DNA of 64,000 nt from Acholeplasmataceae bacterium (GCA_963675245.1 OY775910.1:736001-800000); one strand, 5' to 3'. Positions 36,658-42,709 are shown, counted from the stretch's first letter. A program made the numbers and translations. The notes: generated by a model from the sequence alone, not told the origin.

Positions 36658-36733
36658 GGCTCTGTAGCTCAGTCGGTAGAGCAAAGGACTGAAAATCCTT
36701 GTGTCGGCAGTTCAATTCTGCCCGGAGCCACCA
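36658..36733 (+). tRNA. tRNA-Phe(GAA), anchor (R0) of the cassette array
   Basis: GGCTCTG/CGGAGCC acceptor, AAGGA-CTGAAAA-TCCTT anticodon arm, CCA. Confidence 0.97.
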
Positions 36734-36747
36734 TGGAGACCTTAAAT

Positions 36748-36774
36748 AAGCCATTTATAGTGGCTTTTTCTTTT
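36748..36774 (+). terminator. Terminator of the rRNA/tRNA operon, copied in array repeats
   Basis: AAGCCATT-TAT-AGTGGCTT-TTTCTTTT. Confidence 0.85.
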
Positions 36775-36864
36775 ATAAAACGCTTAAAAGTCAATCATTT
36801 GATTATATATTGTCTAGATTAATTAAACAATGGTATAATAAAAGAAAATTGTTGGTGGGGATTT

Positions 36865-37416
36865 ATGAAAAAAATTCTAATAGTTTTATTGTTTATTTTT
36901 TTGCTAACTGGTTGTGCTAAACAACGAACGGAAAATATTGTTGAAGATTTAAATGAGAGCAGTAATTTTGAATATGGCTTATTAATAGAAGTCACTAGTG
37001 ATATTAAAACTCATTTCAATATTAGTCCCGGTTTTGGAGTATATACACTTTTTGATTCATCCATTGAAATAGATATTCAGCAGGAAAGCATTCTAAGTTA
37101 TATAGATGAATATGAAACAACCACATATGATGTAACAGCATATCCAGATTATTCTGATGGTGGAGAATATATTACAATGATTTGGACGACCGATCCAGAT
37201 GTTCATATTTATGACTTATCTGTAGGTGATTCATATACTGAAGAGGAACTAAGTGAATATATGTTATCTTTAGGATTCACTCGAACAAACGATTCAGAAA
37301 ATATATTTATGTATAATAAAGAGCGATTAAATATTTCGATCTTCGTTGAGAGTAACATCATCACGAAGATGTATGTAAGAGTAGATATTACTAATAGATG
37401 GAATATTCAGTATTAA
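36865..37416 (+). CDS. Cassette 1: hypothetical lipoprotein
   Basis: MKK plus hydrophobic stretch plus LTGC lipobox. Confidence 0.8.
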   Translation: MKKILIVLLFIFLLTGCAKQRTENIVEDLNESSNFEYGLLIEVTSDIKTHFNISPGFGVYTLFDSSIEIDIQQESILSYIDEYETTTYDVTAYPDYSDGGEYITMIWTTDPDVHIYDLSVGDSYTEEELSEYMLSLGFTRTNDSENIFMYNKERLNISIFVESNIITKMYVRVDITNRWNIQY

Positions 37417-37440
37417 TTAATAGAATGAATTAGTAAAAGT

Positions 37441-37538
37441 TGCTTGAAACGACTGAAAATCCTTGTGTCGGCAGTTCAATTCTGCCCGGAGCCACCATGG
37501 AGACCTTAAATAAGCCATTGATAGTGGCTTTTTCTTTT
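37441..37538 (+). repeat. R1: full repeat (TGCTTGAAAC, tRNA-Phe 3' half, terminator)
   Basis: Identical to 36687 onward through CCA and GGAGACCTTAAATAAGCCATT; one change in terminator loop. Confidence 0.97.
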
Positions 37539-37633
37539 GTATATGGGGAAGCTTGTCCTTGTATTAACCAAGTATTGTCCTCATTTGAAACTAATGCTAT
37601 AATTAAATTAATTAACACATGGGGGTAGAATTG

Positions 37634-38110
37634 ATGAAAAAAATAATTTTAATTTTTTTTGCAACATTCGTAGTTTTATTTATGTCAGCATGTAAACCAT
37701 ATACATATAACGGAAAAGAAATCGAGTCATTAAAATTCGTTGATATTGATTATTTTGGAGACTATAGACATGAATCAATCATTGATCTACAAAATGGAGA
37801 AGTACTCCACAGACAGTACTCGCCTGAAATCCCAACCCCAGATTATGAAATAGATTTTACATTTGATACTTCCGAAGTTGATTCTTTTTTGGATGAGTTT
37901 GGTTCATCAGGCATATTCAATTTAAAAGAAGAATATCATACAATCTATCATGTTGATGATGGTGGCGGATGGATATTTACAATTTATTATTCAGATGGAA
38001 CCGAAAAAACATCTACAGGAGATAATTATTGGTTAACGAAAGTTTTTGAAAAAGCAGGAACAGCGACTATCAATTTATACGGAGATAATTTATTTGATCC
38101 AGTACACTAG
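37634..38110 (+). CDS. Cassette 2: hypothetical lipoprotein
   Basis: MKK...MSAC lipobox; DDGGGW...Y.DG..K...GDN segment. Confidence 0.8.
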   Translation: MKKIILIFFATFVVLFMSACKPYTYNGKEIESLKFVDIDYFGDYRHESIIDLQNGEVLHRQYSPEIPTPDYEIDFTFDTSEVDSFLDEFGSSGIFNLKEEYHTIYHVDDGGGWIFTIYYSDGTEKTSTGDNYWLTKVFEKAGTATINLYGDNLFDPVH

Positions 38111-38127
38111 TCGATATATAGTTTGGC

Positions 38128-38224
38128 AGTATGAAACGACTGAAAATTCTTGTGTCAGCGGTTCAATTCTGCCCGGAGCCACCATGGAGACCTTAAATAA
38201 GCCATTTATGATGGCTATTTCTTA
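38128..38224 (+). repeat. R2: full repeat with several substitutions
   Basis: AGTATGAAACGACTGAAAATTCTTGTGTCAGCGGTTCAATTCTGCCCGGAGCCACCA...AAGCCATT..ATGGCT. Confidence 0.95.
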
Positions 38225-38268
38225 TTGAAGATGATATAATCAAAATATGATTTCAGGGGGTTACACTT

Positions 38269-38811
38269 ATGAAGAAGACTATTATATTTTTCATGATGAT
38301 ATTAATTTGTGTATTACTTTATTCTTGTAATGGATATAATAATTTAATGTATGATCACTTGAGTGATTTGAATAATTATATATCAGTTACGGGAACGATA
38401 GAAAATATAGTATTTTTTGATGCAGATTGGAATGAATTGAATTGGGATTTATCTGATGATGATATTCCGGATTTATATGAACACTTATGCATATATATCA
38501 AGTTTTACTCTGAAGATGACTATCTGCAATTCACAGGAACATCAAATATTCCCGAAAATTTTGAGTATCAGTCAGTATCTATAATGTTTGATATGATTAA
38601 AACAAATATTGAAATATTAAACGAGAATAGCTTTTTTAAAGAATCGATGATTGATGAAGAAGTTTCAATAGTTACTTCAAATTGGATATATATGGATACA
38701 AATTTTTTTCAAATAGTTGGGCTGAGCTTTGAGGAGATTTCCTACCTTGATCCAGAAGAAGGGTTAAATAATTATAGTACTTATATGGAAGACAATAGTT
38801 CATTGTTTTAG
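38269..38811 (+). CDS. Cassette 3: hypothetical acidic lipoprotein
   Basis: MKK...LYSC lipobox. Confidence 0.75.
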   Translation: MKKTIIFFMMILICVLLYSCNGYNNLMYDHLSDLNNYISVTGTIENIVFFDADWNELNWDLSDDDIPDLYEHLCIYIKFYSEDDYLQFTGTSNIPENFEYQSVSIMFDMIKTNIEILNENSFFKESMIDEEVSIVTSNWIYMDTNFFQIVGLSFEEISYLDPEEGLNNYSTYMEDNSSLF

Positions 38812-38821
38812 AAAGAAAGGG

Positions 38822-38919
38822 TACGTGTAACGACTGAAAATCCTTGTGTCGGCAGTTCAATTCTGCCCTGAGCAACCACGGAGACCTTAAATAAGCCATT
38901 TGTGATGGCTTATTCTTTT
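38822..38919 (+). repeat. R3: full repeat
   Basis: TACGTGTAACGACTGAAAATCC...CCCTGAGCAACCACGGAGACC...terminator. Confidence 0.95.
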
Positions 38920-39008
38920 GTAAATTCAGTAAAAGTCCTTTTGCTTACTACGTTTTGTCGAAAACTAAATAGTAATGATATAATTAAAGAAAACTTTTTG
39001 GGGATCAC

Positions 39009-39512
39009 ATGAAAATAGAATATTTTATGATTGAACTTAAAGACATTTTAAAATCCTATTACTGTATATGGTATTTTTCTGAAAATAGCGAAAAGGATTT
39101 TTTAGTTAAAAGCAACAATAAGATTGCCGTATTTGATTATATTGAATCTGTAATTTTATATGCAAGTGTGAATAATATTGGATTATTGGATGAAAAACAG
39201 CATGCAATATACGATTTAAATTATATTCAAGATTTAGTTAATGGAAAAACATCTCACATTGATTGTAGCGATATACTTGATTTTTGGAATATAGTTGATG
39301 CAATATGTAATACACTGAATATTGTTTTCATTGGATTGGAACATAGATTTGATAAACTGTATGATAAATTATTCAGAGGATGTAATACAATATTAAATAA
39401 AGAAATATACACACCTCAATGGAGTAAAAGCGAAATTAATCAGATAAAAAAGTTATTGACAGAATTCCTATTGATTATTAGCAATGTGTTAAAAGGTGCA
39501 CGAAACGACTGA
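39009..39512 (+). CDS. Cassette 4: hypothetical protein, stop codon lies inside R4
   Basis: GGGG RBS; ORF ends ...GARND-TGA within GACTGA. Confidence 0.75.
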   Translation: MKIEYFMIELKDILKSYYCIWYFSENSEKDFLVKSNNKIAVFDYIESVILYASVNNIGLLDEKQHAIYDLNYIQDLVNGKTSHIDCSDILDFWNIVDAICNTLNIVFIGLEHRFDKLYDKLFRGCNTILNKEIYTPQWSKSEINQIKKLLTEFLLIISNVLKGARND

Positions 39513-39594
39513 AATTCCTTGTGTCGGCAGTTCAATTCTGCCCGGAGCAACCACGGAGATCTTAAATAAGCCATTGATAGTGGCTTTTTCTTTT
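39497..39594 (+). repeat. R4: full repeat
   Basis: TGCACGAAACGACTGAAATTCC...GAGCAACCACGGAGATC...terminator. Confidence 0.95.
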
Positions 39595-39682
39595 GGAGAA
39601 TCATCAATAATCCCTTTGTCAACAATGCCTTGTCTAATTTTCATGAATAATATATAATTAAATAAAAAAGTGGGGAGTATAT

Positions 39683-39988
39683 ATGACACCAGAGATGGAA
39701 AAACTTTACAACAGTCTTAGTACGGTTAAAGTTAAAAATGTTGCACAAGCATATGATTATTTAGGTAACGAAGTAAATGGGCTTGATATGGATCATAAAT
39801 TGTCGTTTGAGATGACTCTAGAAGCTTTAAAGAACGTCAATAAAGATTATAAATTATTAAAAAAATATTATAAAGGTAAAATCGATACTAATCTTGAAAG
39901 TGTTTATACTAAGTATCCAGAAGATTCAGAAGAATATTTCTTTTTAAAGTGCTTAATTAGATTGACTGAATATAATGTCACGAGATAG
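39683..39988 (+). CDS. Cassette 5: hypothetical protein
   Basis: GGGGAG RBS, fills the interval between repeats. Confidence 0.75.
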   Translation: MTPEMEKLYNSLSTVKVKNVAQAYDYLGNEVNGLDMDHKLSFEMTLEALKNVNKDYKLLKKYYKGKIDTNLESVYTKYPEDSEEYFFLKCLIRLTEYNVTR

Positions 39989-40003
39989 AGGGTTTGACAT
40001 TTG

Positions 40004-40026
40004 TGTATGAAACGACTGAAAATCTT
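40004..40026 (+). repeat. R5: truncated repeat (core only)
   Basis: TGTATGAAACGACTGAAAATCTT. Confidence 0.9.
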
Positions 40027-40055
40027 TATATTTACTCGTAAAAGGGGAAGTTAAA

Positions 40056-40370
40056 ATGATATTGTCTGAAAAAACAGATTTAAGTTTCTTTCACGACTCA
40101 AGAGTTGGTGAGATTAATTATAATTATGCGAGCAAATCTTTAATTTTTCACTTGTGTTTAGATAGTTCATCATCAATTAGAAGAGAAGTTGAACTCAAAG
40201 CTAACATTGTTTTTTCTGTAGAATTAAATTCGATAGAGCCTTGGGGACCAGGAATATACATAAATGAGGTCACATTAGAAGATAAAATAGAATTTAAAAG
40301 GCTATCAATAATAATAAATTCAGGAGATATATTTGTTATTGATGCAAATTTATTTGAAATAATTATTTAA
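40056..40370 (+). CDS. Cassette 6: hypothetical protein
   Basis: AAGGGG RBS; FHDS...SGD.F.I.A pattern reminiscent of small immunity-type proteins. Confidence 0.7.
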   Translation: MILSEKTDLSFFHDSRVGEINYNYASKSLIFHLCLDSSSSIRREVELKANIVFSVELNSIEPWGPGIYINEVTLEDKIEFKRLSIIINSGDIFVIDANLFEIII

Positions 40371-40372
40371 CA

Positions 40373-40400
40373 TGCATGAAACGACTGAAAATCCTTGTGT
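40373..40400 (+). repeat. R6: truncated repeat
   Basis: TGCATGAAACGACTGAAAATCCTTGTGT running into TATAAT. Confidence 0.92.
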
Positions 40401-40455
40401 TATAATTATATAATTTAATAACAGGAACAAAAAACTAAGTAAGGAAGAAAATGTC

Positions 40456-40854
40456 ATGAAAACATTAAAGGATATTGAAATTAAGGATTTCAATGAAAGT
40501 AATCTCATTAGATTTAAAAATATAAATATTGATGAAGATACCGAAGTTTACAATGTCACCATGCATGTTTTTGTTAAGAATAATTTTCTACAATGCATAT
40601 CAGAATCATTGACTTTTCATTCTAAAGAACTGTTAACATTTTTTGATAACTGCAAAGACATTTATGATAAATTGACCGGAAACACAACTATTGAATCGAT
40701 AGAAAACAAAAAATGTATATTGACATTGAAAGCAATAAGCAAAGGATATATTGAAATATCTGGAACAATAGAGCAATTAATTGGTTCAAACAAGTGCGAA
40801 TTTACTCTACTTTTTGATCAAACATGTCTCAAGGATAAATTTAACATATCATAG
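40456..40854 (+). CDS. Cassette 7: possible WapI-like immunity protein
   Basis: L.G...IES.E...L.L.....GYIEISG.I...N..EF....DQT.L pattern, recognised from memory. Confidence 0.5.
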   Translation: MKTLKDIEIKDFNESNLIRFKNINIDEDTEVYNVTMHVFVKNNFLQCISESLTFHSKELLTFFDNCKDIYDKLTGNTTIESIENKKCILTLKAISKGYIEISGTIEQLIGSNKCEFTLLFDQTCLKDKFNIS

Positions 40855-40885
40855 AATTCTCAAATTATTATATTAGTGAAGTTGT

Positions 40886-40980
40886 TGCAGGAAACGACTG
40901 AAAATCCTTGTGTCGACAGTTCAATTCTGCCTGGAGCCACCATGGAGACCTTAAATAAGCCATTCAATATGGCTTTTTTT
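40886..40980 (+). repeat. R7: full repeat
   Basis: TGCAGGAAACGACTGAAAATCCTTGTGTCGACAGTTCAATTCTGCCTGGAGCCACCA...terminator. Confidence 0.95.
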
Positions 40981-41032
40981 ATTTCACTTTGATATAATTT
41001 AGTTAAGTAAATACGCAATTGGGGAGAAAAAT

Positions 41033-41455
41033 ATGATTAAATTCAGTTTTGTTAAATCAATCAAAAATGATTATGCTTTATTTGGTTCTGCAATAGTAGT
41101 AATACTGTTAATACCCTTTGTAGTTTATAATATTGTAAAAGGTGAATTTAATGCTGTATATGTTTTTGGATCAATAGATTTGTGCTTTATATTTTTATTT
41201 TTATGGCGGTTACTTGTAATCAAATCATATTTTAATGATTCTATAGAATTAGAAGGAACAATAACTAAAATTTGGTTTTATAAAGATAGAGGAAGAGTGG
41301 AATTTTACTATAAAATCGAAACCCGTGAATTTGGAAAGGGACATGCAATAATGAAGACAAAAGCTACTTTAGCATTAAATAAAGGCCAAAAAGTCAAACT
41401 ACTAATTAAAAATAGAAATCACCAGAAAGCAATTATTGCTGACTTGTATTCGTAG
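41033..41455 (+). CDS. Cassette 8: two-TM membrane protein (DUF3592-like)
   Basis: Two TM helices, then G.IT...RVEFYY...GQKV.L....N. Confidence 0.65.
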   Translation: MIKFSFVKSIKNDYALFGSAIVVILLIPFVVYNIVKGEFNAVYVFGSIDLCFIFLFLWRLLVIKSYFNDSIELEGTITKIWFYKDRGRVEFYYKIETREFGKGHAIMKTKATLALNKGQKVKLLIKNRNHQKAIIADLYS

Positions 41456-41478
41456 AAACATACAATATTTTATTTATG

Positions 41479-41500
41479 AGTATTAAACGGCAGAAAATTC
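41479..41500 (+). repeat. R7b: decayed core-only repeat
   Basis: TTAAACGGCAGAAAATTC vs TGAAACGACTGAAAATCC, 14/18, sitting between two ORFs. Confidence 0.55.
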
Positions 41501-41530
41501 AGTATTTTTGTGGAGAAACCAAATAGAATA

Positions 41531-41824
41531 ATGCAAAAGACTGATTATCGAAAAGAATTGCTTATTGAATTTTCTTTCCTTGATATTGACAAAAAAAGAG
41601 ATTATTCCTTATACAGACCTCATCTTGTTGTACAAGGAGATTCAGAATATTTAGGTATAGCGTTTTATGCTGATACCATAAAAAAAGAAGGAAATAAATA
41701 TACAGCAAGAATTCATTGCATATATGAAGGTGTAAATTATAATAAACTACTCTCAAATGTTTTATTTGAAATAAGGGAGGGACCCATTATTTTAGCTAAA
41801 GGAAGGGTATTGAAGGAATTATAA
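41531..41824 (+). CDS. Cassette 9: hypothetical protein resembling EF-Tu domain III (start may be GTG 41510)
   Basis: YRPHLVV...FEIREG..ILAKGRV resembles EF-Tu C-terminal YRPQF...FAIREGGRTVGAG. Confidence 0.6.
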   Translation: MQKTDYRKELLIEFSFLDIDKKRDYSLYRPHLVVQGDSEYLGIAFYADTIKKEGNKYTARIHCIYEGVNYNKLLSNVLFEIREGPIILAKGRVLKEL

Positions 41825-41840
41825 TCTAACGTCACCGGTT

Positions 41841-41927
41841 TGTATGAAACGACTGAAAATCCTTGTGTCGGCAGTTCAATTAACCAAGGAGACCTAAAAT
41901 AAGCCATTCTATGTGGCTTTTTCTTTT
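41841..41927 (+). repeat. R8: repeat with net 11-bp internal deletion
   Basis: GTTCAATT-AACCAA-GGAGACC replaces GTTCAATT-CTGCCCGGAGCCACCAT-GGAGACC. Confidence 0.93.
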
Positions 41928-42016
41928 ATATAAAGGGAGATTGTCGTTCTATCGATTGTATCTTGTTCAACTTTAATGAATAGTGTTATAATTAAAGAAA
42001 ATATTGGAGGGCCAAT

Positions 42017-42325
42017 ATGAACAAATATGTTAAGGGTTTAACATTTGAAAACATTATTGGTAAGTTAATTTTGGTTGGTATTACATACGAAAACAAAAAC
42101 GGTGATGTGTTGAGTTATAGACAATTTCATGGACGAGTTATACAAGCAGATTCAATTAAAGGTATAACAATTAAAAACGAAAGTAATCAAACATATAATT
42201 TACCACCAGATTTAAATTATTTTATAGTTGCTAAACCAGGTGAATATCGAGAAAAAGAATCGGGGATAGTCATTAGTGATCCAGATTATATCACCCAATG
42301 GATTTCAACACAATCAGACACATAA
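42017..42325 (+). CDS. Cassette 10: conserved hypothetical protein
   Basis: GGAGG RBS; GK.ILVGITY...QFHG...LPPD...A.PGEYR...DPDY...W. Confidence 0.8.
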   Translation: MNKYVKGLTFENIIGKLILVGITYENKNGDVLSYRQFHGRVIQADSIKGITIKNESNQTYNLPPDLNYFIVAKPGEYREKESGIVISDPDYITQWISTQSDT

Positions 42326-42361
42326 TTATTACTCATTGTATTATAATAACTTTATGAATAG

Positions 42362-42455
42362 AGTTTGAAACGACTGAAAATCCTTGTGTCGGCAGTTCAA
42401 TTCTGCCCGGAACCACCATGGAGAACTTAAATAAGCCATTTCGATGGCTTTTTTT
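42362..42455 (+). repeat. R9: full repeat
   Basis: AGTTTGAAACGACTGAAAATCC...CCCGGAACCACCATGGAGAAC...AAGCCATTTCGATGGCTT. Confidence 0.95.
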
Positions 42456-42709
42456 ATGACTGATTAGGGATGATTCTTGTCATGACTCACACTTGTTATC
42501 ATGAATAGATTAGTGCTATAATAATAGTTAATTGGTAATCGATAACTTAAACATATTTATCACAAGCAAAAGTGAATCATAATAATAAGAGTTATTGTTT
42601 CATTTCAACTCAATATAGACACGCATGTATAACTTCAGGGGACAGCATGGACATGGTGTTTTTTATTTAAGGATTTCATCCATATATGATAAGAACGGAA
42701 GGAGAACAT

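Follow-up and report, generated by a model that had tools for sequence, protein, structure and literature searches.

A constant left arm precedes the tRNA-Phe-derived repeats of a cassette array in an Acholeplasmataceae bacterium and is probably one half of a recombinase site

A stretch of 64,000 nucleotides from an Acholeplasmataceae bacterium (GCA_963675245.1, OY775910.1:736001-800000; the window, whose own numbering is used here) contains an array of small gene cassettes that are separated by partial copies of a tRNA-Phe gene. The intact tRNA-Phe(GAA) gene (36658..36733, + strand, predicted by ARAGORN) is the final gene of a tRNA cluster and the only tRNA-Phe among the 42 tRNA genes of the genome. 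It carries at 36687-36698 the core GACTGAAAATCC shared with the repeats and forms the anchor (the attB/attL side) of the array. Directly after it comes a tail (TGGAGACCTTAAATAAGCCATT..TGGCTTTTT, 36734..36775, + strand) that resembles a terminator hairpin, and downstream follow nine direct repeats, named R1 to R9, lying between ten cassettes with 11 open reading frames (ORFs), all on the + strand. The ORFs are 101-183 amino acids (aa) long, with one co-oriented ORF per interval and two in one case.

Each site is given here as left decamer, core and right heptamer, spanning positions -10 to +18 counted from the GACTG that opens the core; all sites and ORFs below lie on the + strand. Cassette 0, with an ORF for a 183-aa lipoprotein (36865..37416), is followed by R1 (37441..37469, tgcttgaaac-GACTGAAAATCC-TTGTGTC), a long form that continues through the tRNA 3' half and a terminator to ~37537. 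Cassettes 1 and 2 encode lipoprotein-like proteins of 158 aa (37634..38110) and 180 aa (38269..38811) and are closed by the long sites R2 (38128..38156, agtatgaaac-GACTGAAAATTC-TTGTGTC) and R3 (38822..38850, tacgtgtaac-GACTGAAAATCC-TTGTGTC), respectively. The 167-aa ORF of cassette 3 (39009..39512) takes its TGA stop codon (39510-39512) from within the core (GACTGA) of the long site R4 (39497..39525, tgcacgaaac-GACTGAAATTCC-TTGTGTC). Cassette 4, which in its entirety covers 39503-40034, contains a 101-aa ORF (39683..39988) and leads to R5 (40004..40032, tgtatgaaac-GACTGAAAATCT-TTATATT), a short form without tRNA 3' half or terminator. Also short is R6 (40373..40401, tgcatgaaac-GACTGAAAATCC-TTGTGTT), which lies after the 104-aa ORF of cassette 5 (40056..40370) and is the sole site of this array with an exact-consensus left arm. 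The 132-aa product of cassette 6 (40456..40854) has a weak match to a WapI-like immunity family (E 1.5e-4, below the cut-off) and precedes the long site R7 (40886..40914, tgcaggaaac-GACTGAAAATCC-TTGTGTC). Cassette 7 (41033..41824) is the interval with two ORFs, one membrane-like of 140 aa (41033-41455) and one of 104 aa (41510-41824), and ends at R8 (41841..41869, tgtatgaaac-GACTGAAAATCC-TTGTGTC), which has an internal deletion of the T-arm part and keeps the terminator. The 102-aa ORF of cassette 8 (42017..42325) is followed by the last site, R9 (42362..42390, agtttgaaac-GACTGAAAATCC-TTGTGTC), again long, with tRNA 3' half and terminator reaching ~42456. Beyond R9, a chromosomal gene of 1469 aa starts at 42686.

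From tRNA position 30 (GACTG...) onward the repeats match the tRNA gene, and in six of the nine copies the match extends past CCACCA into the tail. These six long repeats (R1-R4, R7 and R9) contain the whole tRNA 3' half followed by a tail that scores as a terminator, and because every long repeat ends in such a copy, the tail appears to belong to the mobile unit. R5 and R6 end ~18-20 bases in. A scan for terminator-like sites gave ten over both strands where 1.7 are expected, with eight such hairpins on the + strand.

The initial annotation had claimed that the nine copies share, immediately to the left of GACTG, a motif TGYATGAAAC which the tRNA gene lacks and which defines an att-like site. 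Upon rereading, all nine decamers proved to be listed correctly, with GACTG starting at 37451, 38138, 38832, 39507, 40014, 40383, 40896, 41851 and 42372, and the tRNA-Phe gene indeed has tagagcaaag at the corresponding place. A TGYATGAAAC-like sequence absent from the tRNA gene is thus common to all nine: C at -1 (where the tRNA has G), A at -2 and -3, G at -5 and a pyrimidine at -8 are invariant, while A at -4 and G at -9 occur in eight copies each, and no conservation was seen among the nine copies to the left of -10. With at most one mismatch GACTGAAAATC matched the window 14 times versus 1.88 expected, and GAAACGACTGAAAATYC with at most two mismatches gave 12 forward matches, nine of them R1-R9, with none in reverse orientation and none in the control. 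Of the seven occurrences of the exact 12-mer GACTGAAAATCC in the 1.63-Mb genome, six belong to the array and one to the tRNA gene; the reversed control is absent. Given that the genome has a single tRNA-Phe, there is no other tRNA-Phe gene with the motif.

The motif was also expected to be conserved in homologous arrays, and it is conserved in the arrays of other genomes. The pattern used for the first search comprised the core and the right arm and excluded the left arm. The same left arm was found in the flanks of eleven loci of relatives (for example ttgcatgaaac, gtgcatgaaat and atgcatgaaac), with ATGAAAC at two or fewer mismatches before 10 of the 22 non-tRNA cores in these loci, as compared with a uniform chance estimate of ~1%. 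Multi-copy arrays were present, among 151 genomes of the same family, in one of the same genus (G006) and four of another genus (G067, G104, G159 and G169). Allowing two mismatches, a 19-mer was found in 36 of 307 genomes of the order and in 27 of 171 in the family of the present bacterium, the reversed control yielding three hits in all. An exact scan with one genome per species returned 97 stretches, with carriers in Mycoplasmatota bacterium WC30 and in Izemoplasmatales, Mariniplasma and 'Tenericutes' records; a few single matches in unrelated phyla were taken as chance. The exact 22-mer was retrieved from metagenomes in 119 stretches.

WC30 is a cultured carrier with a complete genome of 2.01 Mb. 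It has 42 exact 12-mer cores, one of which is its tRNA-Phe gene, and exact GAAAC precedes 38 of the 41 others. The WC30 sites fall in ~nine arrays that lie mostly away from tRNA-Phe. All sites within each array are co-oriented in both the present genome and WC30, which is the arrangement that excision requires, and the WC30 arrays likewise consist mostly of single-ORF cassettes, each closed by a site. In WC30, the site itself also opens spurious ORFs starting MHETTENP..., which could mislead gene callers.

To define the site, 256 distinct core contexts were collected. Genuine tRNA-Phe genes account for 18 of them, and among the others the left arm is present at two or fewer mismatches in 188. 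The alignment profile of these 188 sites has high information content from -10 to +18 and nearly none outside, and positions -10 to -8 (T, G, C) reach 0.9-1.9 bits even though they were part of no search pattern. The resulting consensus is TGCATGAAAC, followed by GACTGAAAATCC and by (T/A)TGTGTC. It is centred, to within one base, on the middle of the tRNA-Phe anticodon loop, and the 29-bp span fits a putative 11+7+11 arrangement of two 11-bp arms around a 7-bp overlap. In 122 of the 188 cases the site is of a short form in which no further tRNA sequence remains.

The two halves of the site behave differently across hosts. Position +12 tracks the host tRNA-Phe, being T in nine of nine sites of the present genome and four of four in G006 and A in 47 of 51 sites of WC30 and five of five in MAG22, with G067 mixed at three versus three. 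The left arm stays unchanged from host to host, TGCATGAAAC being exact in 40 of the 51 WC30 sites. Two finer claims of the initial annotation fared unevenly. A fixed G-to-C change at -1 holds in this genome (9/9) but not elsewhere, since G067 has G in three of six sites; as a speculation, this G could place the left cut at or left of -1. Likewise, the dyad AAnGA/TCCTT around the anticodon loop stands here but is reduced in WC30, where the right side reads TCCAT and only GA/TC plus one outer pair remain.

The same site also marks the end of elements that encode an integrase. At four loci of relatives, tRNA-Phe is succeeded by an element of 2.9-4.5 kb that encodes a Xer-like tyrosine integrase and, in two cases, a CRESS-type Rep. 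The common order is tRNA-Phe, tail, antisense integrase, Rep or another ORF, a helix-turn-helix (HTH) gene and TGCATGAAAC plus core, and the far end is TGCATGAAAC joined to GACTGAAAATCC in all three loci that extend that far (L138 of WC30, L146 of MAG22 and the metagenome locus L219). WC30 has at L138 tRNA-Phe, an IS200-like transposase, an antisense 288-aa recombinase, a 111-aa ORF, the HTH gene and the first TGCATGAAAC with core, after which come more than 12 cassettes. The MAG22 locus contains tRNA-Phe, an antisense 286-aa integrase, a 303-aa Viral_Rep protein, the HTH gene, two small ORFs, the junction ctgcatgaaac-GACTGAAAATCC and two more cassettes, and L219 has a matching layout in 2.85 kb. 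In G163, from another genus of the family, locus L150 shows tRNA-Phe, tail, an antisense 282-aa integrase and a Rep with S3 helicase before the contig ends short of the far junction; the tail of this tRNA-Phe is identical to the R1/R4 tail and one base off the copy at 36734-36775. The IS200-like gene of WC30 (a Y1 transposase, L138:4678-5145) lies between tRNA-Phe and the integrase, and an ORF sharing its opening 30 residues stands at the distal end of another WC30 array (L142:15386-15853).

The integrases of WC30, MAG22 and G163 are mutually 64-67% identical, that of L219 is 69% identical to that of G163, and in a further genus three genomes have a homologue of 36-37% identity immediately next to tRNA-Phe. 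Pfam assigns them Phage_integrase with a SAM-like N-terminal domain, and the Reps Viral_Rep with an S3 helicase. CRESS Rep relatives on bacterial plasmids are classified as pCRESS. Members of this integrase family have no arm-binding domain, which suits a short, simple site. Against the integron-integrase model TIGR02249, five associated recombinases (275-295 aa) scored 50-95 bits at a cut-off of 265, so that the IntI type was not encountered among them; the best-scoring model was that of archaeal XerA (133-170 bits, below its cut-off of 220), and the closest solved structures are XerA, IntI4, XerD and XerH. A Pfam search of 71 of the 143 ORFs of at least 180 aa in 23 relative loci, namely those nearest the sites, revealed no recombinase; tblastn with ten tyrosine recombinases against all loci matched only WC30 and MAG22; and viral contigs gave neither a match to the 19-mer nor a relative of the integrase. 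Two other recombinases were seen near such sequences. The metagenome locus L242 has a fragment of a different tyrosine recombinase, and in MAG22 a 289-aa tyrosine recombinase adjoins a tRNA-Phe 3' half (L148:2639-3800) whose left flank (..aggaccgatg) is neither tRNA nor TGCATGAAAC and which may represent another element type at the same tRNA position.

Cassettes recur in different arrays as discrete units. One of 607 bp occurs in two WC30 arrays 220 kb apart with 636 of 640 positions identical, different neighbours and homology that spans from site to site. Cassette 4 of the window (39503-40034) recurs in G006 as the first one behind tRNA-Phe (91.5% identity over 532 bp), and cassette 0 has a counterpart in G169 (80% identity over 613 bp). 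Among 159 distinct site-to-site intervals, nine full-length homologous pairs between arrays or genomes were identified, four of them exactly equal in length (607, 369, 564 and 824 bp); they involve WC30, Izemoplasmatales, Mariniplasma and 'Tenericutes' records at 76-99% identity.

The cargo of the window consists of three lipoprotein-like proteins, a membrane protein, the weak WapI-like match and proteins of unknown function; for these cassette proteins PADLOC gave no matches, PHROGs only matches at the level of signal peptides and Pfam only sub-threshold ones. In relatives, cassettes carry a MazE-type antitoxin pair, a Pycsar-like cyclase with effector, an ANT(6)-type nucleotidyltransferase, HNH, GNAT and Fic/RhuM proteins and many lipoproteins. 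Individual cases include an ANT(6)-type streptomycin adenylyltransferase gene that ends directly before a site (L031:11018-11863) and another site of that genome that comes after a Pycsar-like cyclase with a PycTM effector and a hydrolase (L034:2581-3788). Genomes of two genera share, at 91% identity but in unlike chromosomal surroundings, a module of ~2.1 kb (L039:8480-10560 and L028:9560-11800, minus strand). It contains a MazE-like antitoxin, an 88-aa partner, an HTH membrane protein, TGCATGAAAC with core and ~270 nt of conserved non-coding sequence ending in a terminator, so that its site is internal to the shared block and not terminal. Rfam had no match at the conserved non-coding stretch after the site in the G151/G077 module. 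In sequencing runs, a 515-nt contig from a groundwater metagenome (X6) matched 40407-40921 with 5 differences, and a marine metagenome (X5) contained 41908-42616 nearly unchanged; no RNA run was among those listed as containing the sequence. Logan contigs break at repeats and are therefore uninformative on excision; a joint of 36705 to 40373 in a sequencing run, with only 20 letters on one side, was too weak and was left unused.

The initial annotation further proposed that the motif is the cassette-side recombinase arm beside a 7-bp overlap equal to the anticodon loop, and this proposal is now supported by association: a constant left arm, a right arm that tracks the host, the far junctions of the elements, the ends of the cassettes and the 29-bp span. 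We consider it probable that TGYATGAAAC is the element-side arm of a duplex att site of ~29 bp used by Xer-like integrases and that the cassettes were stacked in trans; from the sequences in hand we infer binding, crossover position and trans-mobilization. In the proposed mechanism, small Xer-like tyrosine integrases on elements of 2.9-4.5 kb would use this site to target the anticodon loop of tRNA-Phe in Mycoplasmatota. Each element or long cassette would bring its own tRNA 3' half and terminator, so that integration would rebuild the tRNA, and the far junction would then consist of TGCATGAAAC plus core. Integrase-less units of 0.4-1.4 kb with the same site and usually one gene would be stacked head to tail by an integrase acting in trans, and would be excised, lost or exchanged by recombination between direct sites in an integron-like manner. 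Short cassettes would be restricted to internal sites, as R5 and R6 are.

Several observations weigh against this mechanism. The genome has no orthologue of the tRNA-Phe integrase, the best match being a tRNA-Gln integrase of ~31% identity. It also has no Rep and no serine recombinase. The association of site and integrase is purely positional; a full integrase is present in only one of 107 metagenome loci carrying the exact 22-mer, and it is absent from the assemblies of most array-bearing relatives (G006, G067, G159 and G169). Viral contigs and metagenome loci revealed no free circle, and the metagenome loci had no terminal repeats that would suggest one. The symmetry of the arms is weak, 5 of 11 positions matching when the consensus is read by eye. 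At least nine sites of other genomes (L096, L020, L062, L063 and L068) have a second class of left arm, TGCAnTTTTG, immediately ahead of GACTGAAAATCC, and this arm may belong to a different integrase clade. Finally, the mechanism gives no origin for the integrase-less cassettes.

The absence of integrase and Rep raises the possibility that the repeats are scars of integrase-bearing elements that had inserted serially and lost both genes, with the left arm kept by descent and the single-gene units never mobile on their own. The degenerate left arms would agree with such a history, only one of nine being exact here versus 40 of 51 in WC30, and tycheposons provide a precedent in which, according to the available part of that report, serial integration pushes older elements outward (10.1101/2020.12.28.424599). 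However, no remnant of integrase or Rep was found anywhere in the genome, array included, and scars explain neither equal-length cassettes common to arrays and distant genomes, with homology ending at the sites, nor the majority of short sites without tRNA 3' half (122/188), nor the ~nine WC30 loci of which most are not at tRNA-Phe. We regard scars as an unlikely explanation for these reasons. Slightly less likely still is that the sites are substrates of the XerC/XerD-like recombinases of the host, as in IMEX (integrative mobile elements exploiting Xer) or the pdif (plasmid dif) modules of Acinetobacter, with the neighbouring integrases irrelevant to cassette movement. A site of ~29 bp has the size of dif, and the two Xer-like genes are the only tyrosine recombinases common to all array-bearing genomes; a naive palindrome scan for dif around the skew extremes gave noise only and singled out no site. 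By contrast, it would be hard to see on this basis why the same site forms the far junction of elements with an integrase beside tRNA-Phe in three loci, and the right arm is simply host tRNA sequence.

The initial annotation had itself named another reading, in which the site acts as a folded single strand, like attC, through a hairpin TGAA-A-CGAC ... GTCG-GCAG-TTCA. All 8 pairs are possible in 38 of 66 long repeats and in three of the nine copies here. The 3' side of this hairpin, however, is the variable loop, T-stem and T-loop of the tRNA, which are conserved for tRNA reasons, and it is missing in 122 of 188 sites, of which only two can form all 8 pairs. Short sites bound cassettes all the same. 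A covariation check on the 66 long sites, limited to the five commonest pair types per position, detected one-sided changes only and none that were compensatory. The folded-strand reading is thus very improbable, and the duplex att site used by Xer-like integrases remains our preferred explanation.

The present genome (G000) has six tyrosine recombinases, all distant from the array, and no serine recombinases; two of the six are XerC/XerD-like by context and score. No integrase gene with attI, and no recombinase gene of any sort, was found beside the array. Because an integrase orthologue and Rep are missing, the array can be described as an integrase-less stack, similar to the CALIN (cluster of attC sites lacking an integron-integrase) of integrons. 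To judge from its sequence it may be inactive at present unless an integrase arrives on an incoming element, and since its left arms are degenerate it is possibly an old, unmaintained store.

Two other tRNA genes of G000 are associated with partial copies and recombinases. An element of 4.8 kb (G000:C1:990415-995299) lies in the anticodon loop of tRNA-Gln(TTG), with a partial tRNA copy at ~990415, an antisense gene for a 293-aa tyrosine recombinase ~1 kb from the tRNA and a phage-type gene resembling a replisome organiser. At tRNA-Lys(CTT), a tandem series (G000:C1:121853-151800) comprises five partial 3' halves (139187, 143815, 146904, 149501 and 151763). Its first interval (17 kb) encodes a 290-aa tyrosine recombinase along with a restriction-modification system, three of the copies are followed by a similar HTH gene, and the left arms have no clear common motif. 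These recombinases, TR3 of tRNA-Lys(CTT) and TR4 of tRNA-Gln(TTG), were considered as integrases of the array and are unlikely ones, as each has its own element and the left arms there are unrelated to TGCATGAAAC.

On a wider scale, we see an even chance that Mycoplasmatota (Acholeplasmataceae, Izemoplasmatales and relatives) have an integron-like gene-capture system of their own that evolved independently, in which Xer-like integrases borne on small, Rep-encoding episomes stack and excise one-gene cassettes and exchange them across orders, the 29-bp duplex site of each cassette combining a tRNA-Phe anticodon arm with the fixed arm TGCATGAAAC, and integrase-less stores are remobilized when an episome enters. 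Few routes of gene gain are generally assumed for wall-less bacteria with small genomes, and such a system would explain part of their accessory gene pool. If true, the integron problem would have been solved a second time, independently, and a compact pair of tyrosine recombinase and site would be available.

The components of the system have precedents. Williams reportedly described in 2002 integration into anticodon loops with flanking symmetry. Sublocations of the anticodon loop with flanking symmetry are established integrase targets in the available text of a later study, in which ~19 bp around the anticodon loop were sufficient for ICEAfe1 (10.1101/2020.11.02.365908), and CRESS Reps have bacterial plasmid relatives according to the accessible portion of another (PMC8780604). 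Tycheposons, as far as their description was available, insert serially at tRNA genes and leave partial tRNAs (10.1101/2020.12.28.424599). Tycheposon-type elements resemble the present system in having an integrase beside the tRNA, a replication module with cargo and partial tRNA copies that mark older insertions. They differ from the units described here, which are 0.4-1.4 kb long with one gene, lack an integrase and have an intact two-armed site that is mostly tRNA-free, and in WC30 the arrays occupy many non-tRNA loci.

The cassettes of the window are flanked by the left arm and core of integrase-bearing elements and lack an integrase themselves, as is expected of cis-mobilizable elements (CIMEs). 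CIMEs stand in tandem with an integrase-bearing relative and are presumed to be mobile when the integrase is provided. However, they are few per site and are regarded as decayed integrative and conjugative elements (ICEs) or integrative and mobilizable elements (IMEs), unlike the dozens of one-gene units exchanged across orders here. Accretion of integrase-less DNA between att sites has been described for streptococcal ICEs, in the parts of those sources available to us (PMC5704250, PMC6323972). Xer/dif modules (IMEX and pdif) share with the array sites of ~28 bp around small gene modules and the lack of a dedicated recombinase gene nearby; by contrast, the direct repeats here are derived from a tRNA anticodon arm, and integrase-bearing elements have their att junctions at these same sites. 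In literature covered mainly at the level of titles and abstracts, we found no published description of tRNA-Phe-derived cassette sites in Mollicutes or Mycoplasmatota.

The closest likeness is to integrons and CALINs. In both cases, mostly single-gene cassettes stand head to tail in one orientation and are bounded by sites, a tyrosine recombinase lies at the end of the array in some genomes while other genomes have integrase-less arrays, cassettes are common to arrays and taxa, and the cargo consists mostly of small proteins of unknown function. To our knowledge, integrons have not been reported from wall-less bacteria. The site here is of a duplex type with 29 bp and no conserved hairpin, whereas integrons use a folded attC, which is 57-141 nt in size. 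Furthermore, the integrase is XerA/Xer-like and not IntI, scoring 75-95 bits on the integron-integrase model, and resides on a small episome-like element, sometimes with Rep. A tRNA gene serves as anchor and is rebuilt by every long cassette, and many cassettes have a terminator and promoter of their own. The system thus works like an integron yet lacks two defining features of one, the IntI integrase and the folded attC. What sets it apart is the combination: dozens of one-gene units with intact two-armed 29-bp sites that are mostly tRNA-free, at many loci, with exchange across orders and a non-IntI integrase.

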